Program-made: the position numbers and the translations under genes | Part shown: piece by piece, positions 22,660 through 39,227 of the stretch | Layout: every line of letters starts with the position of its first letter | How positions within the stretch are numbered: position 1 is the stretch's first letter | Assembly (NCBI GenBank): GCA_965238075.1 | Contig: OZ250173.1 | Coordinates: 3,264,001 to 3,328,000 of the forward strand | Length of the DNA stretch: 64,000 nucleotides | Reading direction: 5' to 3' | From: Candidatus Entotheonellaceae bacterium | GTDB taxonomy: Bacteria; Tectomicrobia; Entotheonellia; Entotheonellales; Entotheonellaceae | Notes under the pieces: generated by a model | Seen by the model: only the letters and a program-made list of their open reading frames with translations | What the model was told of the DNA's origin: nothing | The model's database searches: none

Positions 22660-23004
22660 GAGGCATCCTGAAGTCTTACGAAGTAAATTTCACCATCATA
22701 CCTCCACTTCGCTGACCGGGGCAATCCAGCCGTCGTCGCCTCGACCCGTTCATCAATTCGTAATCACCCAAAGCCTACAACCACCCTGCCTATTTATGTT
22801 CAGTAAACCAGAATTGCATCGGCGCATATTCTGACCGTCTGACTGTCACAGGGGATTCTGCTCCGTCGCCCCCACCCTCTCCGCATGTTGACTGCGTGGC
22901 AGGCCACAACTACGATACCGCGGCTTTGTACTTGGCCAAATGACGCAGCAGGCGCACGGAACGACGTGCGGCGAGGCGACGGAGACATCGTAAGGAGCAA
23001 ATTC

Positions 23005-24084
23005 ATGCAGCGACGCACGTTGATTCGAAATTTGAGTTTAGGGGCCGCGGGGGTGGTGCTGGCGGCGCCGGCGGTGCAGGCGCAGAAGAAATATCGCTGG
23101 CGGATGGCGACGAGCTGGACGCCGGCTCTGGACGTGCTGCAAGGCAATGCGGTGCGTTTCGCCAAGGTCGTGGACGAAATGAGCGAGGGGCGGCTTAAGA
23201 TTCAGGTATACGCGGCGGGCGAATTGATCCCGGCGTTCGGCGTCTTCGATGCGGTTCTGCAGGGCACGCTGCAGATGTTCAACGCCGCGGCGTATTACTG
23301 GGCCGGCAAAGAGCCGGCCACGCAGTGGTTCACGGCGATGCCGTTCGGCCTCAATCCGCGCGGCATGTATGCTTGGTACTACCAAGGCGGCGGGCTCAAG
23401 CTGTGGGAGGAAACCTACGCGGCGTTCGACCTGATTCCGCGTCCGGGGGGCACCACGGGCAACCAGATGGGCGGCTGGTTCAAAAATAAGCTGGAATCAA
23501 TGGCCGATCTCCAGGGCCTGAAGTTCCGCATTCCCGGCCTGGGCGGCAAGGTGTACGCCGAGGCGGGCACCACGGTGGTGCTGACACCGGGCGGCGAAAT
23601 TTTCCCGGCCCTCGAACGCGGCGTCATCGACGGCTCGGAATGGGTGGGGCCGCACGACGACATGAAGCTCGGCCTGCACAACGCCGCGAATTACTACTAC
23701 TACCCAGGCTGGCACGAGCCCGGCACCACTGGCGAGTTCACCTTCAACCGTAAGGCCTATGAGGAGTTGCCCTCGGACCTGAGGGCGATTCTCGATTACG
23801 CAACGAGCTATTGCGGCGAGCAGATGCTGGCCGAATACGAGGCGAAGAACATCGTCGCCCTCAACACCCTGAGAACCAAGTACCAGGGGCAGGTCGAAAT
23901 CCTGCCGTTCCCCGCCGATGTGATGGACAACCTGCGCACCTTGGCGCGCGACGTGCTGGCCGAGGAGGCCAACAGGAGCCCCATGGCCAAGAAGGTGCAC
24001 GAGTCGTTCACCAAGTTCCAGGCGCAAATCAGCCCGTGGGCGGAAATGACGGACGGCGCGTATCACCGGCTCGTGAGGGGGTAG
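23005..24084 (+). CDS. dctP: TRAP transporter substrate-binding protein (TakP-like)
   Basis: Tat-like MQRRTLI, WRMATSW, YYWAGK, TGNQMGGWF, EWVGPHDD, YYPGWHEPG. Confidence 0.92.
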   Translation: MQRRTLIRNLSLGAAGVVLAAPAVQAQKKYRWRMATSWTPALDVLQGNAVRFAKVVDEMSEGRLKIQVYAAGELIPAFGVFDAVLQGTLQMFNAAAYYWAGKEPATQWFTAMPFGLNPRGMYAWYYQGGGLKLWEETYAAFDLIPRPGGTTGNQMGGWFKNKLESMADLQGLKFRIPGLGGKVYAEAGTTVVLTPGGEIFPALERGVIDGSEWVGPHDDMKLGLHNAANYYYYPGWHEPGTTGEFTFNRKAYEELPSDLRAILDYATSYCGEQMLAEYEAKNIVALNTLRTKYQGQVEILPFPADVMDNLRTLARDVLAEEANRSPMAKKVHESFTKFQAQISPWAEMTDGAYHRLVRG

Positions 24085-24277
24085 GGGCGCAGGCAACATG
24101 ACCATCGAACGGCGGACCGCCAGAGCGGCAGCGCCGCGGAAGCAGGAGTATCAATAGGAATCGGACAACTTGGACCGTAAGGCCCCGGTGGCGCCCCACG
24201 CAATCTGTGACTTGGTTATTGAGGTGTTCCAGGCCGAACCATCGCGCGGATTCGGACGCGATGGAGAGGAGGGTTAC

Positions 24278-24526
24278 GTGGTCTGGAAGGCAATCGGCAA
24301 CATCGCCGCCTTGGTGGGTGTGCTGGTGGCGATGGTCATGATGTTCAATCAGGTTGACGGGCGACTGGACTGCATGCAGACAGAGACAAACCCCCTCTTT
24401 GACCGCATGCAGACAGATACCAACGCCCGCTTTGATGCGGTGCTTGAGGCGATTATGAGCTTCGACCGCCGGGTCTCGCGCATCGAACGGCGTTTCGATG
24501 CCCATAGCACCGGGGCCGCCGAGTAG
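24278..24526 (+). CDS. Small TM + coiled-coil protein of the repeated leader (copy 1)
   Basis: GTG start after GGAGG; hydrophobic N-terminus, then heptad-like RLD/RMQ/RFD repeats; paralog at 33693-33917. Confidence 0.65.
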   Translation: MVWKAIGNIAALVGVLVAMVMMFNQVDGRLDCMQTETNPLFDRMQTDTNARFDAVLEAIMSFDRRVSRIERRFDAHSTGAAE

Positions 24527-24766
24527 GCATGCGGTCCCGCTGGCGGATTGGCGACCGCGGCTCGCGGCCGCTTAGAACTCCCCAACTGGCTGCCAAAAGA
24601 GGGCTGATGATACGGTTGACGTCCCACCGATTGCGGGCGAAATCGCCCCTTTCGCAACTTCCGGTGGGGCGTTCTGGAGTTCTCCGCGGCAAAATGGCGT
24701 AAGTCCAGCATCCACGCGGGTTTCCGGTGATGCTAAAGTTTACACATAGAGACTTATCAGAAGTTG
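24311..24766 (+). repeat. Leader/platform repeat, copy 1
   Basis: Aligns by eye with 33693-34158; the last ~300 bp are near-identical and similarity ends at the dif-like site. Confidence 0.92.
24737..24764 (-). other. dif/Xer-like site 1 (leader-proximal)
   Basis: Minus strand ACTTCTGATAA-GTCTCT-ATGTGTAAACT. Confidence 0.75.
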
Positions 24767-24780
24767 AAGGGAGAAATCTC

Positions 24781-25071
24781 ATGAGTGTATTCGCGCATCT
24801 GGTCACTTCTATGGGGTGGGGTGAACCTGAGGCGACGCAGGCCTTGGCTTATATCCTCCGCCAACAACCCGGCATTCTTCGGGCGTTCGTCAGCTTGCTC
24901 GGCGCGGCAGGCGTCACATTCAACCCCGGACGCATTGAGTTTGATGATAATGAGGTGTATTTGCCGGGCAACGACAAATACCTCCCCATCCGCCTCAAAC
25001 CTGGTGTTGAGCGAGAGAGGGTAGTTGAGGACGCGGTTGAGCAGATCCGCGCTGCTGTGTTCGGAGGTTGA
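24781..25071 (+). CDS. Cassette ORF, hypothetical protein (possibly internally deleted)
   Basis: RBS GAAGGGAG just after site 1; the TGA stop lies inside site 2. Confidence 0.55.
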   Translation: MSVFAHLVTSMGWGEPEATQALAYILRQQPGILRAFVSLLGAAGVTFNPGRIEFDDNEVYLPGNDKYLPIRLKPGVERERVVEDAVEQIRAAVFGG

Positions 25072-25094
25072 CATAAGACGGGATTATCCGAAGT
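25066..25094 (-). other. dif/Xer-like site 2
   Basis: Minus strand ACTTCGGATAA-TCCCGTC-TTATGTCAACC. Confidence 0.8.
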
Positions 25095-25222
25095 TGAGCG
25101 GGTATGACCTGCGCGGGGAACCAGCTCCTTTTTTTCCGGTTGACTTGCCGATTGAACATAGAAGATATTGGCCGCCGCTCAGGCACTTCGTCCTTGAATC
25201 ATCAAACGAAAGGGGGTCCGTT

Positions 25223-25398
25223 ATGCGCTGGATCGTGGTTTTGACGGTGCTCGCGGCGGGGCCACGATTGCCGAAGCACAGGCATTTCAAGGAATTGTGA
25301 TGGATGATGGCAATCGAAGCGTGACGTTCTCCAACTCGATGCTGGAGATCGGCTCCGATACGCTGAACAATCTCAGAGTCTGGCCCAAAATAAGTTGA
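25223..25398 (+). pseudogene. Remnant of a secreted-protein cassette gene
   Basis: RBS AGGGGG; MRWIVVLTVLAAG, then a frameshift to ATIAEAQAFQGIVMDDG...; truncated. Confidence 0.35.
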
Positions 25399-25620
25399 GC
25401 GATTTCGGTAGGTTGTGATTCGCTGGCATGACCAAGCCGCCACTGGCGAATCCCAAAGGACATCGGGACGACCGTTAATACCGCCCAAACGTGGCTCCTT
25501 CATCACCAGCGCAGATCTTCTCGTCTTTGGATTGGTAGAGCTATGAAAAACAATGCCTTATTTCGGGACGAACTCTTAACAAGGTTATATTTACGGACAC
25601 TACACTCTAGGGGTTGACCG

Positions 25621-26550
25621 ATGCGCGAGAGGATGATAACGGATGAGATCCGCATGAGCGACGGCGCACCCATTATCCTGCGGAGGCTCGGGAACCCCAA
25701 GGGCTTGCGGCTTGTGGTCAGTCACGGCAACGGCTTGGCGGTCGACGCCTATGAGTCGTTCTGGAGGCTGCTCTCGGACCGGTTCGATCTGATCCTCTAC
25801 GACGTCAGGAACCACGGGCGGAATCCGGTGGGAGATCTCGCCGCGCACAACATGGCCCAACTGATCGACGACACCGTGACTGTCGCGCAGGCCATCGACC
25901 GGACGTTTGGCCGACGGCCGCGGGTCGGTGTCTTCCACTCGTTGGCCGCTCTCCTGTGCCTGTTGCCGGGCGCGGAAGCGCACGGCTATGCGGGCCTGGT
26001 GCTGTTCGATCCGCCGGTGGCGCCGGATGCGGACTCGGCGAGCCGCCTGCTGAAGATGAGGCGGAAGCGGGTCGAGCAGGCGCGGCAGCGGCAGGCGGAC
26101 TTCGACACGTGGGAGGATCTGGCGGACGTCTACCGGAGCGCCGCGCCGTTTCGCTTGCTGCCGCCGAGAGCCGTCGAGCGGCTCGCGCAGGCAACGCTCC
26201 GGCCGCGCGGGCCGACGGGCTTCACGCTCTGTTGTCCGCCTGCGTTCGAAGCCAAAATATACGAGGAGAGCATCGCTTGGTCAACGCGCGTTGACTTCGA
26301 CCGTATCCGGTGTCCCGTAAGGGTAATCGGCAGCGATCCGGTGCTCCCCTTCTCGTTCCTTCCAAGCGTCGATCTGAACGAGATCGTGAAGCTGGACTAC
26401 GATTTCCTGCCCGATGCAACGCACTTCCTGCAACTCGAGAAGCCCGGGGAGTGTGCGCTGTTGGTGCGGGACTTCCTCGACACCCTGGAGAGCGACCGAT
26501 GCAGGGGCGCAACAGCGGACCTGGCCGGCGGCGGGCCGGAGACATCGTGA
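25621..26550 (+). CDS. Alpha/beta hydrolase
   Basis: SHGNGL, YDVRNHGRN, nucleophile elbow GVFHSLAA, THFLQLEKP. Confidence 0.85.
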   Translation: MRERMITDEIRMSDGAPIILRRLGNPKGLRLVVSHGNGLAVDAYESFWRLLSDRFDLILYDVRNHGRNPVGDLAAHNMAQLIDDTVTVAQAIDRTFGRRPRVGVFHSLAALLCLLPGAEAHGYAGLVLFDPPVAPDADSASRLLKMRRKRVEQARQRQADFDTWEDLADVYRSAAPFRLLPPRAVERLAQATLRPRGPTGFTLCCPPAFEAKIYEESIAWSTRVDFDRIRCPVRVIGSDPVLPFSFLPSVDLNEIVKLDYDFLPDATHFLQLEKPGECALLVRDFLDTLESDRCRGATADLAGGGPETS

Positions 26551-26680
26551 ACCGGACTCGCCTTGGGGCCTTCCATCGGGGAACCTTCAGGCAGCAGACC
26601 TGCGACCTGCGGCCTGTCGGTGGTAAGCCGAACCGCCGGTCACCTGCCACGGGGCCGGAAGTGCTGTGAGGTGGATTCGC

Positions 26681-27729
26681 ATGCGGACACCGCCGGAACG
26701 TGAACGAGGGGAACCTCAGGTGTCGTTGGCGTTCTCACAGATGATCATGGGGGCTTGGGTGCCCCAGGTCATCTATACCGCAGTCTCGCTCGGGGTCTTC
26801 TAGAACCTCCACGCCGGGCCGCGTTCCGGCGCCGAGATAGCAAACGAGATTGGTGTTCCGCTCGCGACCACGAATCGGCTGCTGCGCGCCCTCGTTTGCC
26901 TCGAATTGTGCAGCGCGTCCGAGTCCGACACCTTCGCACTCATGCCGGGGGGACGATTACTTTGCGCGGAGACGCCGGGCTCGATGCGCTCGCTGGCGCT
27001 GCTCCGGGGCCGAGGGAGCGTCTGGTCGGCGTGGGGCAGGCTGCTGGACGTTGTTCGCACGGGGAAAACGGCTCCGGAGCTGGTCGCCGGGAAAGGCATC
27101 TACGAGTGGCTGGCCGACGATCCGGCCGGTTTCAATGTCTTCAACCAGGCGATGACGGAGCTGAGCATCGCCCAGGCGTAGGCGGTCCCGATGCCTTTGA
27201 CTTTTCGGATGCCCACGTCATCGTGGATGTCGGTGGGGGCTACGGTGCGCTCCTCATGGCGATACTCATGAGGTACGGCGACGCCAGCGGCGTCGTCTTC
27301 GATCGCTCCACGTGCCGTGAGGGATCGGAACGGTTGATCGCGCAGACCGGACTGTCGGATCGCTGCAGGTTCGTCGGTGGCGACTTCTTCAAGTCGGTGC
27401 CCGTGGGGGGCGACATATACCTGCTCAAGAACGTGATCCACAATTGGGACGACGATTGGAGCATGACCATCCTGCGAACCTGCCGCACGGCCATGAGCGG
27501 AGATTCACGCCTGCTGCTGATTGAGCCGATCGTGCCCGAACAGATCACCGCGTCGCTCGCCGACACTGTAGTGGTCGCATTCGATTTGCATATGCTGCTG
27601 TTGACCGGCGGTTGCGAACGCACCGAAGAGCAGCATCGGTCGCTGTTGCAGGCAGCCGGGTTCGACGTGATGCGCATCGTGCCGACATCGTCGGCGCTCA
27701 ACCTGATCGAGGCGCGCCAGACGGCTTGA
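26681..27729 (+). pseudogene. SAM-dependent O-methyltransferase (dimerisation + methyltransferase domains), disrupted
   Basis: In-frame TAG at 26801 and a frameshift near 27180; VDVGGGYG, GGDFFKSVP, LLKNVIHNWDD, GGCERTEEQ. Confidence 0.85.
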
Positions 27730-27732
27730 CTC

Positions 27733-27913
27733 GGCATTGTCGAACAAGAGCCATTGTGAAGGATGTGTTGAAACTTTCAAATGGTGGCAAGAGTGCGATG
27801 GGTCGAGTCGACCGGGTTCCATCTCATGCAGCCACCTCGAACAGCTTGTTGATGAACTGAATCTGTTGCCGAAGATCCGAACCGCTCACCCACCGCGCTT
27901 GCCCCTTCCGGAT
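27733..27913 (-). mobile_element. IS6-family right-end remnant
   Basis: Minus strand IRKGQARWVSGSDLRQQIQFINKLFEVAA* resembles IS6 transposase C-termini; the end GGCATTGTCGAACAA resembles IS6 IRs. Confidence 0.6.
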
Positions 27914-28165
27914 CTGGCGGCGGCCCTGGGCCTGAACGGCCTCGGGGGCTTCGGAGGCTTCGCGGGCGGCGGCGGGGACGCGCCGATGGGCGGCACGGAG
28001 TTCCTGTTCGCGTGGGGCGGGGCTGGCAGTTCTGGGGCCAGGGCGACATCCAGACGTTCGCGGGCGAGCCGGCGGTCGAGCGGCGCTACGAGGGCGGCAT
28101 GCGCCTCGAAACCGAGCTGACGGCCATGCATCCCTACCTGGGCTGGTCGAACGGGGCCACGTCGG

Positions 28166-28269
28166 TGTGGACGAAGTCGGCGGCGCAGATCCTCGAGAAG
28201 GTGGACCGAGCCCGGAAGGCCCTCGCCGCCGTCTCCCGCATAGGAGGCTGTGTTCGGACACTACACTAG
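28166..28269 (+). mobile_element. IS630-family transposase C-terminus and right end
   Basis: WTKSAAQILEKVDRARKAL...LH*, ending in GGACACTACACTAG (TA-terminated). Confidence 0.7.
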
Positions 28270-28334
28270 ATATCATGCTAGGATGGACTCGACATGCGGC
28301 GACCGTCAAGTTCGCCGCCAGGGGGAATGATGAC

Positions 28335-28622
28335 ATGGCAGCCTACGTGATCATGGATATCGAGGTAACCGACCCTACCAGCTACCGTGGTTTTCTGGAG
28401 CAGGCGGCGGCAACGGTTGCAGCGCACGGCGGCAAGTATCTCGTGCGCGCCGGCGCCACGACAGTCCTGCAGGGCAACTGGCAACCTCATCGCCTCGTGG
28501 TGGTGGAGTTCGACAGCGCCGAGCAGGCGAGACAATGGAGAAACTCGCCGGACGCCACTCACGCCAGAGAGATGCTCAACAGGTCGTCCAACACGAACAT
28601 GATAATTGTCGAGGGCGATTAA
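28335..28622 (+). CDS. DUF1330-family protein
   Basis: MAAYVI, HGGKYLVRAG, RLVVVEFDSAEQARQW, IIVEG. Confidence 0.88.
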   Translation: MAAYVIMDIEVTDPTSYRGFLEQAAATVAAHGGKYLVRAGATTVLQGNWQPHRLVVVEFDSAEQARQWRNSPDATHAREMLNRSSNTNMIIVEGD

Positions 28623-28777
28623 CGCCGCGCTACGGTGGGCGGACCGGTTGTGGTGCAACTTTGGCCGACGGCGGCTGGTAACCGGAAGAGATCATGAAAA
28701 AAGACAATCCGACTGGCGATCTTCAAGTGGCGACAGACGCGGCCGCGGGTGCTGCCGCTGGTAATCAGGTGAATGCG

Positions 28778-30043
28778 ATGAGCCGCGCTCAGCGCTACGA
28801 CTGCGCGGTCATCGGCGGCGGGCCCGCGGGCGCGACGGCGGCGACGGTGTTGGCACAGCACGGCCGGCGCGTGGTGGTCATCGAGCGCGAGCGCTTTCCG
28901 CGCCACCACGTCGGCGAATCGCTGATGCCGTACACTTGGTTTACGTTCGAGCGGCTCGGCGTGCTCGACTGGTTCACGGAAGCCGCCTGTCCTCAGAAAT
29001 ACAGCGTGCAATTCGTCCCGACCTCCGGCAAGGTGTCGCAGCCATTCTATTTCTTCGAGACCATCAAGCACCCTTGCGCCACCACCTGGCAGGTGCTTCG
29101 CAGCGACTTCGACCGGATGCTGCTCGACAACGCGCGCGCCAAGGGCGTCGAGGTGCGCCAGGGGGCGGTGGTCCGCGAGGTGCTCATGGAAGGCCAGCGC
29201 GCCGTCGGTGTCCGGGCTGACCTAACCGGGGGCGGATCCGAGACGTTCTCGGCCGACGCGGTGATCGACGCGTCCGGACGCAACTCGTTCCTGGCCTCCA
29301 GGCTCGGCATGAAGCGGCGCGACCCCGACCTGAACAAGATCGCCATATTCACCTACTACCGCGGCGCCCGGCGCGACCCAGGGCTCGACGCGGGAGCCAC
29401 CACCGTCGCCTACATCCCGCACAAGGGCTGGTTCTGGTACATCCCGCTGCCGGACGACATCGTCAGCGTCGGCGTCGTGGCCGAGAAGGACTATCTCTAC
29501 CGCGACACGCGCGACCCCGAGGACATCTTCGCACGCGAGGCGGCGGCGTGCATCTGGATCGAGGACCACCTGCGGCCGGGAACGCGCGTCGAGCCGGTGC
29601 GCGTCACCGGCGAGTTCAGCTACCGGGCCGAGGCTATCGGGGGGGACGGCTTCTGTCTGGCGGGCGACGCGTTCTCGTTCCTCGACCCGGTCTTCTCGAC
29701 CGGCCTGTTCATGGCGCTCAAGAGCGGGGAGATGGCGGCGGACGCCGTCCACCAGGGTCTCGACAGCGGCGGGGTTACCGCCGCGACGTTCGAGGAGTAC
29801 GGGCGCCAGATGCGCTGGGCGCTCGACCAGTTCCGGCAGCTCGTGCTGTCGTTCTACAATGAGCGGTTCAGCTTCCGCGAGTTCATCCGCGCCTACCCGG
29901 ACATGCACCCGCGGCTGGTCGACGCGCTGGTCGGCAACGTTTTCTCCGATCTCGGTCCGCTGATCGACGCGCTCCGCGACTTCTTGGCGCGGGAGCCATC
30001 GACCGGCGCCTCGGCGATCGACCCGCCGGCTGTCAGCGCCTAG
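28778..30043 (+). CDS. Flavin-dependent halogenase-family protein
   Basis: GGGPAG, FPRHHVGESL, conserved Lys in CPQKYS, WxWxIP (GWFWYIP), GDAFSFLDPVFSTG; start may be 28694. Confidence 0.85.
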   Translation: MSRAQRYDCAVIGGGPAGATAATVLAQHGRRVVVIERERFPRHHVGESLMPYTWFTFERLGVLDWFTEAACPQKYSVQFVPTSGKVSQPFYFFETIKHPCATTWQVLRSDFDRMLLDNARAKGVEVRQGAVVREVLMEGQRAVGVRADLTGGGSETFSADAVIDASGRNSFLASRLGMKRRDPDLNKIAIFTYYRGARRDPGLDAGATTVAYIPHKGWFWYIPLPDDIVSVGVVAEKDYLYRDTRDPEDIFAREAAACIWIEDHLRPGTRVEPVRVTGEFSYRAEAIGGDGFCLAGDAFSFLDPVFSTGLFMALKSGEMAADAVHQGLDSGGVTAATFEEYGRQMRWALDQFRQLVLSFYNERFSFREFIRAYPDMHPRLVDALVGNVFSDLGPLIDALRDFLAREPSTGASAIDPPAVSA

Positions 30044-30385
30044 CAGCCCGTGGAAGAAACGGGTCTCCAGAGCGTCAGGTGGCGGAAGGGGGCCAGCACC
30101 CAGGCGGCGGTGAGTTTGTGCCGACGGCGGGTTTTGCAGCTTGAAGACCCGGCGATCGGGCTGAAAAGGCCAATATGACGGCGAAAGTGGCGAAGAATGT
30201 GCAGAAAACGGTGCTGACATGACCCGCGAGCGCCGCTTGCGCCGCGGCGAGCCCCTGCAGAGCCCGCGGGGTGCCAAAACGTGCGTGCGGCGGCAGCCCG
30301 GCCAACCGCTGGCCGCGGTCGGCAGCCCGCCGGAAATCGTCCGACGCCTACGCGCCGCGAACGACGGCTCCGGGACGGACGCTCC

Positions 30386-31705
30386 ATGACCCGGGACGCC
30401 GGGGCGGTTCCAGCAACCGAGCGGCTGCCGCGCGAGACGCTGGCCGCGCTTCAAGGCGAGCGCCTGACACGGCTGCTCGGCTATATCCACGCACGGAACC
30501 GGTTCTACACCCGCAAACTGACGGATGCGGGCATCGATCCCGCGCAGCTTGTCCTGCCGCGTGATCTCGCCGCGCTGCCCTTCACCACCAAGGCGGAGCT
30601 GGTGGCCGATCAGGCCCAGGCGCCGCCGTGGGGCACCGTGCTTACCGAGCCGCTCGTGCGCTACACCCGTTACAACCAGACCTCGTCCACGACCGGCCGA
30701 CCGCTGCGCTGGCTCGACACGACGGAGAGCTGGCAATGGATGCTCGACTGCTGGCAGGCGGTCTACCGCGGCGCCGGCGTCGGCGCCGACGACCGCATCA
30801 TCTTCCCGTTCTCGTTCGGACCGTTCCTCGGATTCTGGACGGCGTTCGACGCGGCCACCCAGCTCGGGGCGCACGCCATTCCGGCCGGCGGGATGACGAG
30901 CCACCAGCGACTCGCCCTGATTAGGTCGCTGGCGCCCACCGTGGTCTGCTGCACGCCGACCTACGCGCTGCGGCTGCTCGACGTGGCGCGCGAGGCGGAT
31001 GGCGTCGACAACGCGCTGGCCGATACTGCCGTCCGCACCGTCATCGTCGCCGGCGAGCCGGGCGGCAGCATTCCGGCCACGCGCCAGCGGATCGAGCGCG
31101 GCTGGGGGGCGCGGGTCATCGACCACCACGGGTTGACCGAGGTCGGCCCCATCAGTTTCGAGTGCCGGGAGGCCCCGGGGTTCCTGCACGTCAACGAACG
31201 CGAGTACATCGCCGAGATGCTCGACCCGGAGTCGGGACAGCCGGCGGCGGACGACAGCCGCGGCGAGCTGGTCATCACGAACCTCGGGCGCACCGCCAGC
31301 CCGTTGATCCGCTACCGTACGGGCGATCTGGTCGTCGCGACGCACGAGCCGTGCGCCTGCGGGCGTACGTTCGTGCGCCTCGTGGGCGGCATTGTGGCGC
31401 GCGCCGACGACATGGTCAACATCCGCGGGACGAACGTCTATCCGACTGCCGTCGAAGAGGTTCTGAGCGCAATCGACGCAGTAGTCGAGTACCGCTGCAC
31501 GGTGCGGACGGCAGCCTCGATGCGCGCGCTCGCCGTGGAGGTCGAGGTGGGCCGCGGCGCCGATGAGGCCGCGGTGACGGCGCTGGTGTCGCAAAACCTG
31601 CGGAAAGCGCTCGGCCTGAACGTCCAGGTCACGCCGGTCGCCGCCGGCACGCTGCCGCGCTTCGAGATGAAGGCGCGCCGATTTGTCGTGGAACGCAGTT
31701 CATAA
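30386..31705 (+). CDS. Phenylacetate-CoA ligase family protein
   Basis: LPFTTKAEL, QTSSTTGRP, AGEPGG, HGLTEVGP, PLIRYRTGD, RADDMVNIRGTNVYP. Confidence 0.88.
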   Translation: MTRDAGAVPATERLPRETLAALQGERLTRLLGYIHARNRFYTRKLTDAGIDPAQLVLPRDLAALPFTTKAELVADQAQAPPWGTVLTEPLVRYTRYNQTSSTTGRPLRWLDTTESWQWMLDCWQAVYRGAGVGADDRIIFPFSFGPFLGFWTAFDAATQLGAHAIPAGGMTSHQRLALIRSLAPTVVCCTPTYALRLLDVAREADGVDNALADTAVRTVIVAGEPGGSIPATRQRIERGWGARVIDHHGLTEVGPISFECREAPGFLHVNEREYIAEMLDPESGQPAADDSRGELVITNLGRTASPLIRYRTGDLVVATHEPCACGRTFVRLVGGIVARADDMVNIRGTNVYPTAVEEVLSAIDAVVEYRCTVRTAASMRALAVEVEVGRGADEAAVTALVSQNLRKALGLNVQVTPVAAGTLPRFEMKARRFVVERSS

Positions 31706-31709
31706 TCTG

Positions 31710-31933
31710 AAGCGTCGTAACATGCTGGGGCTCCGCGCGCCGGACAGGCAAACCCCGCCAGAACCTCGTAGCGGTCCTGGGCGTAGGCATGACGAAAACC
31801 GTGTGTGCCGTTCAGCCCGATGCTCTTGCGGGGACTCTGCCACAGGCCGTCACGGTAGTCTTTGTACGACAGCGACGACGGGATCAGCGAGCCCTTGCCC
31901 GCCACCGCCTTGGCATGGTCCAGGGCCTTGCGC
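31710..31933 (-). pseudogene. Tyrosine recombinase C-terminal fragment
   Basis: GSLIP...HGFRHAYAQDRYEVLAGFACP (HxxRH box); bounded by the ISKra4 end. Confidence 0.7.
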
Positions 31934-33348
31934 GGGAGCACCAAAAAGTGTGGGACAGTCAGGCAGCGCGTGGTTCAGCTTCAGCTGACCTGTCCCCGGC
32001 CTTCATTCCCGGGTACCACTGCTCGAACTTCTCCCTGAGCGTGCCGTCGAGGGTCCGCGTCCGGACTTGCAGCATGAGATGCGCCCCGCCTTTCGACCAC
32101 CGCATCTGCTGACGCTTGCCAAACCGTTTGCCGACAACCGTGTTGATGGCACTCTCCACAAACCGTGGAAACGCGCTCGCCGTAGCGCCGCCGTTCGGCA
32201 TAGTTGGGAATCAAGCCCGCGTTGCTGCGGATGTAGGTATCGAACTCGCCGGCAGCTTTCCTGAGTGCCTTCATGCCCGGGTAGTCGGTCTTGATGCCTT
32301 CCAGATCCAAGACGAGTTCCGTGATCGCACGACGGCCGTCGTGCAGATTCCCATTCCACAGGCCGCCTTTGATGCGGCGCAGAAGCCGATCCACGGCTTC
32401 CGCTTCATCCGAATTTGAGTGGCTCAGCCCTCTGACATACTGGCGCATGACGGTGATGCGCATGGTGATGTAGAACCAGTCGAGCAGGTGCTCGGACGCC
32501 GGGGCCATGTAACGCGCCATGTTCCTGACCGTGTCGCCGCCATCGGTCAGGTGACAGGCTGGTTTTCCTGCCATCCCTGCTCCTTCAGGACCTCGTGCAG
32601 CCGCCGCCGTGGCCGGGTGTCGTGGGACTGCACGAGACCGAGGTAACGGTTTGGCTTGTCCACGGGCATGGACTTGGCGACCATGACCTCGAAGTGCGTG
32701 TTCCTTGTCCCGCGAGCGCACATAGCCGCCATCGATTCCGACCGTGATGGAGTCTTCCGGCAGCGGCATGGCGGCCCGCTCCTGCGGGCACGTTTCGATG
32801 AAGAAGAACTGTTCATCTGCCAGTTCGCCTTCCATGCGTTTGGCCGCCATGTGAAGATGGTTACGCACGGTCTCGGCGCTCAGGCCCTCGCCGATGGGCA
32901 GGACATCCTTGAGAAGATGGGTCGCGGCGCCGAACGAGACCAGCGAGGCCCACCTGGTTTCCAGCCACAGCAGTTCCGGTGCCGTGTGGTCCGGAGGCAA
33001 GTCGTTCAGAGGGCTGAAGGTGTTTGGGCGACGGCCGTCGCAGGCACATTGGCAATACCGCGGGCTTGTGACTGAGATATCACCGAAGACCATGCGGTAA
33101 CGGATGGCGCGGCTGCCCTTTTTGCGCAGCCGCAGACCGCAGCCAGGACAGACCGACTTCGAGGCGCAGTATGCCTCCGCCTGGGCCGTAACGATCTCGT
33201 GTTGCAGGGACTTCAGCAGTGCTTTGCCTTCGGCGATTGACAGGCCGGTCTCTTCGTGCCGATCATGTCCCTTGTCGAGAATGATGACCTCGCGCTCCCG
33301 TATCTCACCGTCCGGGGTTGTCACGCGTAGGGTGATCTCGAATTTCAT
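31934..33348 (-). mobile_element. ISKra4-family transposase, frameshifted, with right end
   Basis: CPGCG zinc motif, VGIDGGYVR, TDGG, LDWFYITMR, FVESAINTVVGKRFGKRQQMRWS; true reading frame switches at least three times; end GGGAGCACCAAAAAGTGTGGG. Confidence 0.85.
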
Positions 33349-33561
33349 GGCTGTCCTCCCCAGGCAAGGGGTTTTCCAGAATCCGGGGAGAGGAAAATCC
33401 GCGTTTCACTGGATGGCGTTTTCTGCCATGCCATGGCGTCGGATTGCCCTCTTCGGTCCTCATCTTTGTTTTCGGCCTTTGAGTAGTAATGGAACAGAAA
33501 ACTGTGTTAAGCCTTGCTGAGTTGACGGCCGGCGTCTTTCGGTGAGCCAGTGTCGTTGGCG

Positions 33562-33693
33562 TCATTGAGCTCGGGGAATGAGATGGCGAGAGCGCATGAA
33601 ATGATAGAGCGTTGAGCGATCTACCCCGGTGATCTTGGCAATCAACGCCTTTGAGACCTTGAGGTCCAGGAGCCTTTGAATTTCGTCTTCCTT
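33562..33693 (-). pseudogene. Serine resolvase C-terminal HTH fragment
   Basis: KEDEIQRLLDLKVSKALIAKITGVDRSTLYHFMRSR; lies upstream of the ISKra4 transposase and abuts leader copy 2. Confidence 0.65.
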
Positions 33694-34158
33694 TGGTGGG
33701 TTTGTTCGTGGCGATGGTTACCCTGTTCAACGGTGTCGACGCGCGCGTCGACGCCTTGAACGACCGCATGGACCGCATGCAGGCTGAAACCAACCTGGGC
33801 TTTGAAGCCGTCAATGCACGCTTCGACAAGGCTTTTGAGGCGATCATGAGTTTTGACCGCCGGGTCTCCCGCATTGAAGGGCGTCTCGATGCCCATAGCG
33901 CCGGGGCCGCCGAGTAGTCATGCGGTCCCGCTGGCGGATTGGCGACCGCGGCTCGCGGCCGTTTAGAACTCCCCAACTGGCTGCCAAAAGAGGGCTGATG
34001 ATACGGTTGACGTCCCACCGATTGCGGGCGAAATCGCCCCTTTCGCAACTCCCGGTGGGGCGTTCTGGAAGTCTCCGCGGTAAAATGGCGTAAGGCGAGC
34101 ATCCACGGGGGTTCCCGGTGATGCGAAAGTTTACATATAATCGTCTTATCGGAAGTTG
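33693..34158 (+). repeat. Leader/platform repeat, copy 2 (5'-truncated small ORF at 33693-33917)
   Basis: Paralogous to 24311-24766; the ORF ends EAIMSFDRRVSRIEGRLDAHSAGAAE. Confidence 0.92.
34128..34156 (-). other. dif/Xer-like site 3 (leader-proximal)
   Basis: Minus strand ACTTCCGATAA-GACGATT-ATATGTAAACT. Confidence 0.8.
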
Positions 34159-34217: not shown

Positions 34218-35035
34218 ATGACTGATTTTGCGACTGATGGGTTTTTGAGCGATGAGATATTACGATACGAGAGTCAGCACATCGATACTCTGACGAACTG
34301 GACCTGGCTAAAAGCGTCAATCGAGTTGCCCATACTGCAATCCGGTCGATACGGATCGATCGGACTCAATCAAGCGTGCTTCTTCTGGCATCTCTGCTGG
34401 TGCGTCAAGTAGAGACGTTCCAAGCCTTCTTAATCCTCATCGGAAAGGGTCTCATTCCTCAGTCTGCAATACTTCTGCGAAACATGGCAGAGTCGATGTT
34501 CATTGTGGGGGCTATCGGTAAAGATCAGACCTTTGCAGAAAGCTACATCCAGTCTGAGGATTTACCTCGCCTGAAGGTCCTCAGAAAATTAAGGGAAACC
34601 AGTCTGCGTAGGGGCAATGCACCAGATCCGGAACTGGATACCTCAATTGGAGAGCTTGAGAAAAAAACTGGGAAGGGAAAAATCTGGCAGACGATAGAAA
34701 TAGCCAAAGTTGCTGAGTTGACCGACTATTACGACACCCTGTATCGGTTTATGAGCATGACGGTACACACGTCGCCACGAAGCCTAAACGAAATACTTGT
34801 CGTAGGTTCAAATGGTGACGTCGAAGCATTGAACTACGCACCCAAGGTGGAGAATCTTGAGGTCCACCTTGCATGTGCAATAGACATGATGTCTTACACG
34901 CTACACGAAATAGCAACCCATTTCTCGCTTGACCCTGCGCGAATAGGGCTTGAAGAAGTGCACCAAAGACTTCGAACCCTCGACATCCCTTTTGCCATGG
35001 AGAAACACGGGCATAAACCTCACCGCCAAGGGTGA
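34218..35035 (+). pseudogene. Cassette A: DUF5677-like (HEPN-like) protein, one frameshift near 34275
   Basis: MTDFATDGFL..., then HRYSDELDLAK...ILLRNMAES...YDTLYRFMSMTVH; TGA inside site 4. Confidence 0.6.
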
Positions 35036-35057
35036 CATATAAGGGCTTATCGGAAGT
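35030..35057 (-). other. dif/Xer-like site 4
   Basis: Minus strand ACTTCCGATAA-GCCCTT-ATATGTCACCC. Confidence 0.8.
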
Positions 35058-35075
35058 TGGGGGAGGAGTATCTGA

Positions 35076-35772
35076 ATGAGTGATGGCAACTTGAATCCAG
35101 AAACGACCCTGCAACAGGCTTTGGATCGATCCCTGGTCATACAGGAACAGATCAACACGCTTTTGAATGACCCTGGGCTTTTCATTCCCTCTCTGCCAAC
35201 GAACAAGCAAACGCAGATCGCCTGTGGCTTGTTCGGCCTCACGATCGACCAAGCTTGGAGTGTTACCCTTGAACCTTGGAGTGTTACTCCAGAACGAACG
35301 ATATGGTGCAGCTTTGGCGCTGACACGCCCTGTTCTCGAAGCCTGCTGCAGGGGGAAATGGATCAGATACCATGCAAAAAAGAGAACCATTGAGACCTTC
35401 TCATCCAACAATTTTCCCGACACGCCCTCTCTCATCAAGAAGACAATGAGCCGTGTTGCTGGCCTTAACGGGGGAGCGGATGACTTTGTCTTAAATGTCT
35501 ACCGATGGCTAAGCGACTACACGCATGGCGGGGTTCGCATGCTCAGGATGCAACTGTCCGAGACCGGCGTCGCCTCAGAGTACAACTTGGAAGAAGTGAG
35601 AAAAGCTCTGATGGTATCAGACGTGATGCAGATACAAGCAGCTAGCGAATTGCTCGACTTCGCCCGGTGCAAAAACGACAACGACTGCCAATCATTGAGA
35701 GGAACACACAACCAGTGCAAGCGGTTTCAAGCTGATATGGAAAAAATACGCCATCTTCTGAAGTTGCTATAG
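35076..35772 (+). pseudogene. Cassette B: HEPN-like (DUF5677/DUF6988-like) protein, frameshifted near 35254-35290
   Basis: RBS GGAGGAG; ALALTRPVLEACCRGKW, YRWLSDYTHGG; TAG overlaps site 5. Confidence 0.6.
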
Positions 35773-35798
35773 ACGACATAAAACGGCTTATCAGAAGT
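35771..35798 (-). other. dif/Xer-like site 5
   Basis: Minus strand ACTTCTGATAA-GCCGTT-TTATGTCGTCT. Confidence 0.78.
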
Positions 35799-35851: not shown

Positions 35852-37189
35852 ATGAGTGCAGCAGCAGAAAGCAACACAAGGAACGTTCTGGAAAAAATAA
35901 GTGAGGTAGTAAAACAATCAGCCGATGGCGACTACATCTTTCGTGGCGAACCTAAACACTATCCCAAAGTGTCATCGAGCCTTTACCGCCAGTACCCTGA
36001 GGTTGAGACGGAACATTTCGATATAGAGGTTGTCCAAAGAGAACTTTTGCAGGAGGCGAAAAGACATGCAGATGAACCCGACGACTTTGAAATCCTGACC
36101 CAACTCCAACATTATGGCGGCGACACAAACCTTATTGACTTTACGGCTGACTTTCTCATAGCTCTGTTCTTTGCCTGTGACAGGCACTTCGACATGGATG
36201 GCAGAGTGATCCTGCAGCGAAGGGAACCGATCGAAGATCAACTGAAGGAACCTCGTCACCCAAGAAATCGCGTCATCTCTCAGAGAAGCATATTCATTCA
36301 ACCGCCAAAGGGCTTCATTGAGCCAGACCATGTTGTCTTAATCCCAAAAGACCTTAAACAGCCCATTTTAAACCACTTGCGAAAGTACCATGGCTTATCC
36401 AATGCAACCATCTACAACGATCTTCATGGGTTTATCACCAATCAACGCAACCATAAGAGTGCTTATAGGGAGTTTTACAGAGGTCTTACCTGCCAGGAGA
36501 AAGGCAATCATGACAAAGCGACACATCATTACACCAAGGCCATTGAACTGAATCCGAACCTTGCTGCCGCCTACAACAACCGCGGTATTGCCTACGGGAA
36601 AAGAGGCGAGCTTGACCGAGCCATCGAAGATTGCACCAAGGCCATTCAACTGAATCCGAACCTTGCTGAGGCTTACAGCAACCGCGGTACTGCCTACCAG
36701 AATAAGGGCGAACTTGGCCGAGCCATCGAAGACTACACCAAGGCCACTGAACTGAATCCGAACCTTGCTGAGGCTTACAACAGCCGCGGCGCTGCCTACC
36801 AGAATAAAGGCGACCTTGGCCAAGCCATCGAAGACTACACCAAGGCCATTGAACTGAATCCAAATCATGCTGAGGCTTACAACAACCGCGGCGTTGCCTA
36901 CGGGAATAGAGGCGAGTTTGGCCCGGCCATCGAAGACTACAACAGGGCCATCGAACTGAATCCAAATTATGCTGAGGCTTATTACAACAGCGGCATTACT
37001 TTGTTATCGCGGGAAGAATGGGACAGGGCCAAATCAAAGTTATGTACTGCCGAGAACGAGGGAATAGATATCATCGCTGCGTTTCAGAGTGAGTACAAAA
37101 GTGTTACAGATTTCGAGAGTCAACATGGCGTGGATGTGCCCAAAGACATCACAGCAATGCTAACGCCAAGAGAGGGCGCGTCAGGTTGA
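35852..37189 (+). CDS. Cassette C: FRG-domain protein with TPR repeats
   Basis: YIFRGE, SSLYR, LQHYGGDTNLIDFT..LIALFFAC, RVISQRSIF; 34-aa TPRs; TGA inside site 6. Confidence 0.88.
   Translation: MSAAAESNTRNVLEKISEVVKQSADGDYIFRGEPKHYPKVSSSLYRQYPEVETEHFDIEVVQRELLQEAKRHADEPDDFEILTQLQHYGGDTNLIDFTADFLIALFFACDRHFDMDGRVILQRREPIEDQLKEPRHPRNRVISQRSIFIQPPKGFIEPDHVVLIPKDLKQPILNHLRKYHGLSNATIYNDLHGFITNQRNHKSAYREFYRGLTCQEKGNHDKATHHYTKAIELNPNLAAAYNNRGIAYGKRGELDRAIEDCTKAIQLNPNLAEAYSNRGTAYQNKGELGRAIEDYTKATELNPNLAEAYNSRGAAYQNKGDLGQAIEDYTKAIELNPNHAEAYNNRGVAYGNRGEFGPAIEDYNRAIELNPNYAEAYYNSGITLLSREEWDRAKSKLCTAENEGIDIIAAFQSEYKSVTDFESQHGVDVPKDITAMLTPREGASG
36533..36990 (+). repeat. 102-bp tandem repeats encoding TPRs
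   Basis: ACCAAGGCCATTGAACTGAATCC-like units at 36533, 36635, 36737, 36839 and 36941. Confidence 0.9.
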
Positions 37190-37212
37190 CATAACGCGGG
37201 GTTATCAGAAGA
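37184..37212 (-). other. dif/Xer-like site 6 (array-distal)
   Basis: Minus strand TCTTCTGATAA-CCCCGCG-TTATGTCAACC. Confidence 0.78.
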
Positions 37213-37392: not shown

Positions 37393-38715
37393 TCAGTTGA
37401 ACACGTAGCGCGGCAGCCACGTCGACAGCTCCGGGAAGAAGGCGACGAGCATCAGCCCGATGATCTGGATAATCACAAACGGAATGATGCCGCGATAAAT
37501 CTGGCCGGTGGTGACTTGCCCCGGCGCCACGCCCCGGAAGTAGAACAGCGCGAACCCGAAGGGCGGCGTGAGGAAGGACGTCTGCAGGTTGATGCCCAGT
37601 AGGACGCCGTACCACAGCGGGTCGAAGCCCATGGCGCTCAGGATGGGCGCGATGACCGGCAGGTGGATGAAGGCGATTTCGATGTAATCCAGGAAGAACC
37701 CCAGCAGAAACACCACCCCCATGATGCAGGCGAAAATGGCCCAGTTGGGCAGGTCGAGCTGATTGACCATGTCGTGGATCAGGATGTCGCCGCCCAAGCC
37801 GCGGAATGTCAGGCCGAAGGCGGTGGCGCCCACCAGTATGATGAACACCATGCTGGTCAGGCGCGTGGTCGTTTCCATGACCTCCTTCAGCATTTTGAAG
37901 TTGAACCTGCCGCCGAGAATGCTGAGCAGAAGAGCTCCTGAGGCACCCATGGCCGCCGCCTCGGTGGGTGCCGCGATGCCGAAAAAAATGGAGCCGAGAA
38001 CGGCGACCATCAGGAACAGCGGCGGGACAAGTACCTTGCCGATGCGCCTCAGGAGTTCGCGGGAAGAAATCGCCGTGCGCTCTTCACGGGGAATCGGCGG
38101 TGCGACCTGTGGGCGGAAGAATGAAACGCCAAGAAGATACAGGATATACAGAGCCGCCAGGCTGACGCCGGGAATGAGAGCGCCGAGGAAGAGATCGCCA
38201 ACCGGCACGCCCAGGATGTCGCCCACCAGGACGAGGACGATGCTCGGCGGGATGATCTGGCCCAGGGTGCCGGAGGCGCAAATAACGCCTGACGCGAGCC
38301 CTTTGTCGTAGTTGCGCCGCAGCATGGTGGGCAGCGCGATCAGGCCCATGGTGGTGACGGTAGCGCCGACGATGCCGGTGGACGCTGCCAGAAGCGTGCC
38401 CACGATGACTACCGAAATGGCCAGCCCGCCCGGCAGCCGCCCCAGAACCAGGCCCATGGTTTCCAGCAAGTCTTCCGCCAACCTGGAACGCTCCAGCGTC
38501 GCACCCATGAAGACGAAAAGCGTGACCGCAATGAGGGTGAAATTGGTCATGATGCCCCAGATGCGCAGGGGCAGCAGGTTGAAGAAGTCCAGCCCGAAGC
38601 CGTACAGCCCGAAGGCCAACGCCGTGCCGCCGATGGTGAAGGCGATCGGGTAACCCGCCAGAATCAAAACGCTGAACACCACGAACATCAGCGCCGGAAG
38701 CAGGTCGGTTATCAC
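37393..38715 (-). CDS. dctM: TRAP transporter large permease
   Basis: ASTGIVGATV, SGTLGQIIPPSIVL, NLQTSFLTPPFGFALFY. Confidence 0.94.
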   Translation of the reverse strand: MITDLLPALMFVVFSVLILAGYPIAFTIGGTALAFGLYGFGLDFFNLLPLRIWGIMTNFTLIAVTLFVFMGATLERSRLAEDLLETMGLVLGRLPGGLAISVVIVGTLLAASTGIVGATVTTMGLIALPTMLRRNYDKGLASGVICASGTLGQIIPPSIVLVLVGDILGVPVGDLFLGALIPGVSLAALYILYLLGVSFFRPQVAPPIPREERTAISSRELLRRIGKVLVPPLFLMVAVLGSIFFGIAAPTEAAAMGASGALLLSILGGRFNFKMLKEVMETTTRLTSMVFIILVGATAFGLTFRGLGGDILIHDMVNQLDLPNWAIFACIMGVVFLLGFFLDYIEIAFIHLPVIAPILSAMGFDPLWYGVLLGINLQTSFLTPPFGFALFYFRGVAPGQVTTGQIYRGIIPFVIIQIIGLMLVAFFPELSTWLPRYVFN

Positions 38716-39227
38716 GCCATCTCCTTTCCCAGCACCACGAACAGGTTCTTGAGCGTCGCCGAAACTCCCTGTAAAGCCACCAGCGCGAAGGCGACCGGAA
38801 TGACGGTTTTCAGGATGTAGCGCGCCGGAATGCCGCCGGGGTCAGGTGAGCCCTCCATGACCGACCAGGAATTGACCACAAAAGGGATTGACGTCCAGAT
38901 CAGCAAGAAACAGGTGGGAAAGAGGAACAGAATGCCGAAGACGAGCTCGACCCAGGCTTTCGCGTGCGGCGACAGGTTGGCGTGCACGATATCGACCCGT
39001 ACATGGTCGCCCTTGAGGTGCGTGTACCCGGCGGCGATCAGGAACAGGACGGCGAACAGGTGCCACTCCAGTTCCTGGATGAAGACGTAGGTGATGTCGA
39101 ACAGGTAGCGCATGACCACGTCATAGGTGGTCACCAGGACCATGATGAGGGTGAGCCAGGCAACGTTTTGGCCTACCTTTTCGTTCAGGCGGTCGATTCC
39201 GCGCACTACGGCGGAAAGAAAATTCAT
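38712..39227 (-). CDS. dctQ: TRAP transporter small permease
   Basis: QELEWHLF, HVRVDI, EGSPDPGG. Confidence 0.92.
   Translation of the reverse strand: MNFLSAVVRGIDRLNEKVGQNVAWLTLIMVLVTTYDVVMRYLFDITYVFIQELEWHLFAVLFLIAAGYTHLKGDHVRVDIVHANLSPHAKAWVELVFGILFLFPTCFLLIWTSIPFVVNSWSVMEGSPDPGGIPARYILKTVIPVAFALVALQGVSATLKNLFVVLGKEMA

Follow-up and report, generated by a model that had tools for sequence, protein, structure and literature searches.

Organization of the DctP-DctM locus

We analysed a window of 64,000 nucleotides from a Candidatus Entotheonellaceae bacterium (assembly GCA_965238075.1, contig OZ250173.1, positions 3,264,001 to 3,328,000 of the forward strand). In it, the genes of a TRAP transporter, DctP on the left and DctM and DctQ on the right, enclose a series of short sites resembling dif, small genes lying between these sites, and two copies of a non-coding repeat. 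The repeat is designated the 'leader', a segment between two sites a 'cassette', and a leader with its site a 'platform'. When the window's genome (G000) was compared with five other genomes of the same genus (G001 to G005), the leaders turned out to form a family at conserved positions, behind which cassettes had been replaced and re-located, similarity breaking in or beside the central region of the site. These relatives are few and related, so that counts across genomes are not independent. Sites were detected with a fuzzy pattern that misses decayed sites, and open reading frames (ORFs) were called as longest-ORF guesses in GC-rich DNA. The features of the locus are the following (window positions):

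22885..24084, + strand: DctP, TRAP transporter solute-binding protein (Pfam PF03480, 4.5e-48)
24278..24526, + strand: small ORF A, 82 aa, GTG start at 24278, frame open from 24170
24571..24736, + strand: leader A, non-coding arm (match to leader model R1 at 24571-24767, 129.7 bits; alignments A1 and A2)
24737..24764, + strand: site 1, leader-proximal, AGTTTACACAT-AGAGAC-TTATCAGAAGT
24781..25071, + strand: cassette 1 ORF, 96 aa, without family
25066..25094, + strand: site 2, with a 7-bp central region, GGTTGACATAA-GACGGGA-TTATCCGAAGT
25095..33692, strand not set: 8.6-kb high-GC segment (Pfam; GC 57-70%)
33693..33917, + strand: small ORF B, 74 aa, 5'-truncated at 33693
33963..34127, + strand: leader B (R1 match at 33963-34159, 129.4 bits)
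34128..34156, + strand: site 3, leader-proximal, AGTTTACATAT-AATCGTC-TTATCGGAAGT
34376..35035, + strand: cassette 2 ORF, DUF5677 (Pfam PF18928, 2.5e-23; GC 49%)
35030..35057, + strand: site 4, GGGTGACATAT-AAGGGC-TTATCGGAAGT
35167..35772, + strand: cassette 3 ORF, DUF6988 (Pfam PF22491, 2.6e-11)
35771..35798, + strand: site 5, AGACGACATAA-AACGGC-TTATCAGAAGT
35852..37189, + strand: cassette 4 ORF, FRG domain and TPR repeats (Pfam)
37184..37212, + strand: site 6, terminal, GGTTGACATAA-CGCGGGG-TTATCAGAAGA
37393..39227, - strand: DctM and DctQ, conserved right flank (Pfam; orthologues in G001 to G005)

The six sites are directly oriented, with starts near 24737, 25066, 34128, 35030, 35771 and 37184, and each is built of a left arm, a central region of 6 to 7 bp and a right arm of the form TTATCnGAAGT. 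A site pattern specified at 16 bases matched three times, compared to 0.05 matches expected, and none of 100 shuffles reached three. Within the window, the left arm AAAGTTTACA[C/T]AT occurs at sites 1 and 3 alone, a restriction to the leader-proximal sites that a first-pass annotation of this DNA had already pointed out; the left arms elsewhere are GGTTGACATAA (two sites), GGGTGACATAT and AGACGACATAA.

All four cassettes are co-oriented with the leader. The stops (TGA) of the cassette 1, 2 and 4 ORFs fall within the left arm of the next site (sites 2, 4 and 6), and the end of the cassette 3 ORF overlaps the left arm of site 5 by two bases. Directly 3' of site 1 lies GGGAG, which resembles a ribosome-binding site, and the cassette 1 ORF starts 17 nt past the site; a 65-aa ORF (34215-34412) precedes the cassette 2 ORF. 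The GC content of the three-cassette block is 49%, compared to 57-70% in its surroundings. Outside the array, the left flank is conserved in all six genomes, the DctP orthologues of G001 to G005 being 90-94% identical, and the right arm of site 6 followed by GGGACG forms a conserved right flank in G000, G002, G003 and G005, wherever it is intact.

The 8.6-kb segment encodes, according to Pfam, an alpha/beta hydrolase, an O-methyltransferase, a DUF1330 protein, a FAD-dependent halogenase-like enzyme and an AMP-binding enzyme. It is collinear and 96% identical in G005, and absent from the G001 locus. It is closed by a 220-bp fragment of a resolvase gene (33474-33693), directly 5' of the truncated small ORF B; the fragment matches, at 93-95% identity, both a stretch of G001 and the 3' end of a resolvase (PF00239) gene located at 368568-368783 of G000, and it marks a rearrangement at the head of leader B. 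The topology of the segment and leader B is that expected from the integration of a circle with its own leader and site. The segment is thus probably the body of an integrated circular element, with leader B as its tail. Two cassette arrays had been proposed at this locus. Both leaders do head cassettes; the arrays are not separate, however, but form one composite DctP-DctM array with leader B inside it.

The leader pair and its support in independent assemblies

In a self-comparison of the window, 24421-24720 and 33812-34111 matched without gaps at 91% identity, and blastn aligned 24421-24766 with 33812-34158 at 90.2% identity over 347 bp. The more diverged 5' part (24311-24370 against 33693-33752, 73% identity) belongs to the small ORF. 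The alignment passes through the site merely owing to similar right arms, and the first differences are those of the central region (AGAGAC versus AATCGTC); the cassettes 3' of leader A and of leader B have zero similarity. The two leaders are therefore paralogous up to the dif-like site and followed by different cassettes, as had been claimed.

The first-pass annotation had raised the possibility that the duplication is an assembly artefact, and this we can practically dismiss, because contigs assembled independently support the layout. Zero-difference contigs from runs X2 and X3 span 22883-24557, 24686-25414, 34034-35053 and 35795-37228, and contigs of a second study (X4 and X6) span 34061-35053 and 34153-35496. 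The junction of leader B with its cassette is hence bridged in both studies. The contig 24686-25414 begins ~50 nt before the end of leader A and continues through site 1, cassette 1 and site 2, joining site 1 to cassette 1; a gap of 128 bp (24558-24685) separates it from the contig with small ORF A. The two-leader layout is also present in G005.

A genus-wide family of leaders

Using R1, a sequence-only model of the leader, we found 12 full-length leaders (78-132 bits) and three partial ones in G000. G001, G002, G003 and G005 each had 8 to 17 copies above 40 bits, and G004 had no match above 35 bits. Eight genomes of other genera in the family yielded just three weak matches, to the core site alone. 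The leader is thus not limited to the DctP-DctM locus: it is a genus-wide family, found also on small plasmids with a replicase (Rep) gene. The search that the first-pass annotation had called for, of this genome and its relatives, therefore gave the predicted outcome, namely multiple copies that end at a dif-like site with different DNA behind.

The leader consists of ~200 bp of non-coding DNA adjoining the left arm of a 28-29 bp dif-like site. It contains the near-invariant motifs CCCCAC, CCCACCG, CGGTGGGG, CCAGYAAYGRC and GGGTTTCAG, and the remainder averages 55% identity; the corresponding motifs of leader A are CCCCAAC, CCCACCG, CGGTGGGG, CCAGCATCCAC and GGGTTTCCG. The invariant motifs occur in direct and inverted copies, some of them one helical turn apart, and look like protein-binding sites on duplex DNA. 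By the criterion of our script, both arms of the site are present in 38 of 41 aligned leaders, and in two of the other three they are recognizable in the alignment. The proposal that the leader supplies a fixed half-site fits this picture: the leader-side arm is kept in 38 of the 41 copies, and the spacer, the right arm and the downstream DNA vary. The 150 nt behind 38 leader copies fell into 31 clusters.

The product of small ORF A has an N-terminal hydrophobic helix followed by a coiled-coil-like tail of 11-residue repeats, and is 59.7% identical to that of small ORF B over 67 aa. With tblastn, homologues were located directly 5' of four of the 12 leaders of G000 and 5' of many leaders in G001, G002, G003 and G005; on two plasmid-like contigs, they lie 2.3-2.7 kb 5' of the leader. 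Among 5.8 billion proteins, 41 homologues were found, none with a Pfam domain. Pfam, NCBIfam and the names of homologues gave no clue to function, and the Atlas neighbours were all hypothetical.

Leaders stay in place while cassettes are replaced

Five platforms are orthologous between G000 and G001 (3288571, 2078845, 555160, 450041 and 1928653). In all five, homology runs through the upstream DNA and the leader and ends at the leader-proximal site; in three, it returns beyond a non-homologous cassette block. For the four platforms outside the DctP-DctM locus, homology ends exactly at the leader-proximal site in every case and is regained in two after 2-4 kb of unrelated DNA. At the DctP-DctM locus, G001 is homologous through DctP, the small ORF and the leader to 24765, and again from 37244; the interval is filled by 10.4 kb of different DNA that has sites of its own. 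Orthologous leaders thus precede different cassettes in different genomes, in agreement with the suggestion that different cassettes were recombined behind the leader.

The locus in G005 has the layout of the window, with two differences. One is a 0.8-kb deletion (24451-25246) at a GGTGCT microhomology, which takes away leader A with site 1, cassette 1 and site 2, together with the 3' end of small ORF A. The other lies between the leader B site and the terminal site, where 3 kb share nothing with the window's three cassettes, the flanks being 92-96% identical. G000 and G005 have different cassettes following leader B, yet their 8.6-kb segments are 96% identical; turnover at the leader-proximal site thus continued after the segment was integrated. 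At the same locus, three sites and a diverged leader are present in G002; of the two leaders in G003, the second belongs to a different subfamily; and G004 has neither leader nor site. No relic site was seen between DctP and small ORF A in the six-genome alignment.

As to where exchange occurs, the first-pass annotation had placed it in the spacer. This was partly upheld: similarity breaks at the central region or at the border between the central region and the leader-side arm. At the informative junctions, the central region travels with the right arm, and not with the leader-side arm.

Cassette content and movement

Across four genomes, 39 inter-site segments were collected, 30 of them no longer than 2 kb. 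Most cassette products have no family; the others include Sel1 and TPR repeats, DUF2971, DUF6941, NYN, DUF3187 and a globin. Insertion sequences (IS) intrude into the arrays. The commonest central region of cassettes is CCGCCC, which occurs at many sites.

One cassette has moved between loci. In G001 and G003, the final cassette of the DctP-DctM array matches, at 96% identity, a 1.25-kb cassette that G000 carries at another platform (2476059). On the 3' side the limit of the match is exact and lies just past the cassette's own arm GACAT[A/G]AA, beyond which the central region and right arm differ from genome to genome.

Larger genes and whole arrays are also encountered. In two arrays of G001 (L107, 4393-7326, and the DctP locus, L059/L060), a complete MmeI-type restriction-modification gene forms a single cassette; the two are paralogous, with 977 and 938 aa and 78% identity at the DNA level. 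In G002, two distant loci (L137 and L066) contain the same leader and two Sel1-repeat cassettes at 99.75% identity, the result of a whole array having recently been duplicated or transferred.

A candidate dif, the site arms and the recombinases

A leaderless site, AAAGTT[T/A]ACATAATATAACTTATCAGAAGTT, was found at one orthologous intergenic spot in all six genomes, G004 included. We regard it as the candidate dif. It lies at 3.139 Mb, the cumulative GC skew having a weak peak near 3.34 Mb, and it is unoccupied in all six genomes, that is, without leader or cassettes. On the other strand it reads ACTTCTGATAA-GTTATA-TTATGTAAACT. The dif site of Bacillus subtilis, as given in PMC3025954, is ACTTCCTAGAA-TATATA-TTATGTAAACT, so that 11 of 11 positions of the XerD arm are identical in that comparison; further dif sites end in TTATGTAAACT (PMC2731167). 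Since the candidate dif shares this arm, the leader-side arm can be assigned to the XerD type, and TTATCnGAAGT to the XerC type.

The leader-proximal sites agree with the candidate dif in both arms; site 1 matches both arms of AGTTTACATAA-TATAAC-TTATCAGAAGT. The cassette-borne arms (GGCGACATAA, GGTGACATA and GACGACATAA) deviate from the dif arm AGTTTACATAA: they retain ACATAA and have lost the outer positions, and the central regions are variable and often 7 bp long. Dif-like sites of phages that exploit Xer are likewise described as combining degeneracy of the XerD arm with a central region that varies and is often longer (PMC3025954).

A scan of G000 for tyrosine recombinases (PF00589) returned XerC and XerD along with a broken gene and a pseudogene; none of the four is near the arrays. 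XerD passes its NCBIfam cut-off (370 versus 329.6 bits), and XerC does so narrowly (337.5 versus 335.15 bits). Against the integron integrase model TIGR02249, the two proteins scored 150 and 112 bits, below the cut-off of 265 bits. XerC and XerD were the only intact tyrosine recombinase genes found in G000, and no dedicated integrase was detected. No recombinase gene was found by Pfam in the cassettes of the window or of other arrays. DUF3653, which we take to be the domain carried by the activator XafT, had no match in G000.

Leaders on plasmids and on contigs labelled as other phyla

The genomes of 185,579 species were scanned for the leader and site pattern. Matches came from records of Candidatus Entotheonella and Candidatus Tectimicrobiota, and from contigs binned under other phyla. 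On three small contigs, a full-length leader with its site lies 80-175 bp 5' of a co-oriented replicase gene (PF03090). One of the three consists of perfect tandem copies of a 9,649-bp unit, which points to a circular molecule, and one further record titled plasmid carries a full-length leader. The plasmids have a single leader and site module per unit, and the PF03090 replicase was found in none of the six genomes of the genus. No blastn match to the leader was obtained in PLSDB plasmids, and no pattern match in IMG/VR.

Full-length leaders were also present on contigs labelled Nitrospira, Dehalococcoidia, Caldilineaceae and Rariloculaceae. Three of the contigs (L074, L083 and L091) have transposons or a group II intron in common with G000 at 83-95% identity, and the Nitrospira-labelled contig L080 has an IS and a signal-peptidase gene (79%) in common with it; the contigs sharing transposons or introns with G000 include those labelled Nitrospira and Rariloculaceae and one labelled Dehalococcoidia. 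Because of this sharing, a spread of the leader to other phyla was not accepted, and we read the contigs as plasmids or mis-binned relatives. Partial pattern matches in Myxococcota, Bryobacter-type and Gemmatimonadetes genomes covered the core only.

Small replicase plasmids had been assembled into perfect tandem concatemers (L076/L078/L089 on a 27.8-kb contig and L083/L086/L095 on a 23.7-kb contig), the 9,649-bp unit being itself composed of two subunits of 4.6 and 5.0 kb that are 90-93% identical. They were binned in metagenome-assembled genomes labelled Caldilineaceae and Dehalococcoidia, labels that are doubtful since their mobile elements are shared with the window's genome.

A model of cassette capture and its alternatives

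We think it rather likely that these observations describe a multi-platform cassette system that exploits Xer recombination, with the leaders as composite recombination sites. Each such site would consist of the conserved, double-stranded arm of ~200 bp, often with the small membrane or coiled-coil gene at its 5' side, fused to a dif-mimicking core of 28-29 bp in which a XerD-type arm on the leader side, a central region of 6-7 bp and a XerC-type arm follow one another. A circular DNA with a compatible core, that is, one in which the XerC arm is good and the XerD arm degenerate, would recombine into the leader-proximal core, and we infer that the enzymes are most likely the host's XerC and XerD. 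If events run in this direction, an exchange within the central region or next to it accounts for the leader's retention of its own arm, and for the fact that the cassette, which brings the central region and the right arm, ends at its 3' side in its own degenerate arm; it also explains why the distal right arm stays with the flank. Repeated integration would produce short, directly repeated arrays. Circles that bear a leader themselves, whether small Rep plasmids or larger elements, would integrate as well, and the leader of the 8.6-kb circle would for the same reason end downstream, within the older array of leader A.

The role of the leader in such events may be that of an accessory sequence. 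By analogy with the plasmid sites cer and psi, its arm most likely binds a factor that makes the site proficient for recombination away from the terminus, and it may also drive transcription; on plasmids, a leader and core 5' of rep may serve the resolution of multimers, as cer and psi do. Exchange at the border of the XerD arm, with an activator bound to the leader, is kept as a working hypothesis, because the commonest central region recurs at many sites.

Several observations weigh against this reading. The accessory sequences of cer and psi adjoin the XerC side; the leader adjoins the XerD-arm side, so the analogy is architectural only, and the protein that would bind the leader motifs is a hypothetical factor. 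The Xer role rests on the likeness of the sites and on the lack of another intact tyrosine recombinase in a chromosome rated 93% complete, and plasmid-borne recombinases could be the enzymes instead. The relocated 1.25-kb cassette has a 5' boundary that is not at a site in either G001 or G003. Three platforms are wholly collinear between G000 and G005, hence turnover is slow, and several platforms have one site, a second being undetectable. Orientation bias is modest: of 28 short ORF-bearing cassettes in the four genomes, 19 have their longest ORF in the direction of the leader. Finally, the evidence for recombination consists of assembled contigs rather than reads or experiments, and the sole joint of site 3 to site 6 has a shorter side of 30 letters, at the bound of reliability, with 90% likeness, below the 95% bound. 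This joint, 34157 to 37189 in run X6, has unknown letters between its 30-letter side and the other, and was not counted as activity.

The leader could instead be mainly an expression platform, a promoter and 5' region comparable to the integron Pc, from which any DNA recombined behind it would be transcribed, rep on the plasmids included, its conservation being that of transcription signals. We consider this somewhat unlikely as the main function, though compatible with a Xer-based system. The four co-oriented cassettes of the window speak for it, as do cassette 1, whose ORF begins 17 nt past site 1 and has no room for a promoter of its own, and the rep genes, co-oriented and 80-175 bp past the site on three plasmid-type contigs. 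On the other side, the promoter suggested in the first-pass annotation so far finds no support: the leaders have no sigma-70-type match, in a phylum whose promoters are uncharacterized, none of the RNA runs contained the stretch, co-orientation holds for just 19 of the 28 short cassettes, and the repeated direct and inverted CCCAC motifs are more like binding sites for a factor. A related question is whether the leader acts as a structured non-coding RNA gene or as folded single-stranded DNA, its 3' end being an integration target in the manner of tRNA and tmRNA genes or attC. The inverted repeats CCCACCG and CGGTGGGG, ~55 nt apart, could pair. Yet Rfam gave no match at gathering thresholds or at E<=10 except one chance match of 14 bits, and RNAalifold predicted 7 pairs (-7.8 kcal/mol) for 21 copies and 4 pairs (-0.96 kcal/mol) for 41 copies. 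The 11-pair helix CCCACCG/CGGTGGG had no covariation above shuffles, which reached the observed values in 127 and 269 of 500 cases, and the motifs are invariant rather than compensating. A structured RNA was rejected on these results, and folding of either kind appears very improbable.

Alternatively, the chromosomal leaders may be inert scars left by Xer integration of plasmids and other elements. The leader and core would then be a plasmid site for multimer resolution or an origin region, and the arrays accreted remnants without platform function. The leader and site are indeed present on small Rep plasmids, the topology of leader B, beside a resolvase fragment, is precisely that of the tail of an integrated element, and the DctP-DctM locus of G003 contains a second, unrelated leader. 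We nevertheless judge this explanation improbable. Leader A and at least four other platforms occupy the same position in G000 and G001, at 86-93% identity, with the DNA behind them replaced; the motifs are near-invariant in copies otherwise ~55% identical; all six genomes of the genus lack the PF03090 replicase; and the interval from DctP to small ORF A shows no relic site.

Comparison with known systems

The favoured reading, a Xer-exploiting cassette system, is integron-like in its working, without an integron integrase or attC sites. As in integrons, a fixed platform site heads an array of small cassettes, mostly of unknown function, with insertion beside the platform; ORFs end in a recombination site; content varies between close relatives; and restriction-modification and repeat proteins are found among the cassettes. 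In contrast to integrons, intI is absent, only XerC and XerD passing the cut-offs, and the sites are double-stranded two-arm cores of 28-29 bp instead of folded attC sites of 60-140 nt. There are at least 12 platforms per genome instead of one, the arrays are short (0 to 4 cassettes), and the orientation bias is weaker.

With integrative mobile elements exploiting Xer (CTXphi, VGJphi, TLCphi and the gonococcal island), the system shares the lack of a recombinase of its own, dif-mimicking sites and tandem accretion; degeneracy of the XerD arm and variability of the central region, which is often longer, are likewise shared with phage dif-like sites (PMC3025954). Those elements, however, integrate at the chromosomal dif, whereas here the candidate dif is empty in six of six genomes and arrays lie at 12 other loci. 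The many secondary sites each have a conserved arm of 200 bp, and the cargo consists of single genes, not phages.

The plasmid sites cer and psi have ~180-200 bp of accessory DNA beside a 28-bp core (PMC9113270). A short XerCD core next to DNA of accessory length, here a ~200-bp arm in 41 aligned copies, some of them from Rep plasmids, is common to both, as is the presence of the module on small plasmids. Here, however, the arm is on the XerD side and has no sequence similarity to cer or psi. Only one partner per array has the arm, whereas cer and psi need it on both and act only within one molecule. Their accessory sequence is bound by PepA together with ArgR or ArcA. Gene modules bounded by Xer-type sites are a further likeness to the pdif modules of Acinetobacter plasmids, whose sites alternate in orientation; those modules are plasmid-borne and have no leader arm, unlike the chromosomal, directly repeated and leader-headed arrays seen here. 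Such dif modules have been described as discrete gene modules bounded by XerC/D-type sites in several contexts (PMC9455709).

Almost all known capture of gene cassettes is by integrons, which depend on a dedicated integrase and on folded attC sites; Xer is known to be exploited by phages and islands at dif and by plasmid dif modules. The locus points to a third arrangement, in which many fixed chromosomal platforms hold and exchange single-gene cassettes by means of the host's dimer-resolution enzymes, the conserved accessory arm of the platforms being also found on plasmids. Among open-access papers and preprints, we found none that describes leader-headed chromosomal arrays of Xer cassettes or Xer sites in Entotheonella.

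A bolder form of this reading may be put forward only tentatively. One lineage of uncultivated, sponge-associated Tectimicrobiota would have made its housekeeping XerC/XerD a gene-capture machine, an integrase-free analogue of the integron with about a dozen or more chromosomal platforms per genome, each made of the small gene, a factor-binding 200-bp arm on the XerD side and the dif mimic. The arm, perhaps together with the small protein, would permit strand exchange at the border of the XerD arm without need of FtsK, and the module, shared with plasmids, would serve plasmids, large elements and single-gene cassettes as one recombination currency. If confirmed, the third arrangement would widen the range of ways in which bacteria build flexible gene pools, offer a handle on genome plasticity in an uncultivated symbiont lineage rich in natural products, and provide a natural case of Xer sites working off the terminus with a licensing factor. 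Because the motifs are defined, such a factor could be searched for directly.

Additional observations

In run X4 and run X6, the contig depth over the three cassettes behind leader B (34248-36917) was 8-11, compared to 36-200 in the flanks; in X2 and X3 it was level. This suggests that the population of the second study mostly has other cassettes at this place; the drop may simply reflect a co-resident strain of that kind, and was not counted as recombination activity. Pairs of sites only 52-117 bp apart were seen in G003 (L068, 381/460; L069, 3370/3450), G001 (L110, 5061/5138) and G000 (2474165/2474025). These are near-empty cassettes, and may be footprints of excision or of site duplication.

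In G005, the deletion at the DctP-DctM locus joins what is left of small ORF A, its 5' part, to the ORF starting at 25224. About 0.8 kb (32423-33237) of the 8.6-kb segment of G000 is missing from G005; it lies inside a minus-strand ORF of 455 aa (31981-33348) without family.

Elsewhere in G000, an orphan site with a partial leader is located at 373752, 3 kb from a broken invertase-like tyrosine recombinase gene (376888-377378, in two frames). A group II intron encoding a reverse transcriptase and maturase lies within a 4.2-kb inter-site segment (445805-450040, L003), and is 84-91% identical to an intron on a small Rep plasmid contig (L074, 5304-7301).

The TPR repeats of cassette 4 are encoded by four to five tandem units of 102 nt (36477-36986) that are 76-80% identical. 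Repeat cassettes akin to this FRG-TPR cassette, similar to it at the 3' end and closed by a terminal site of the same type, were found in G002, in G005 and at two other platforms of G000.

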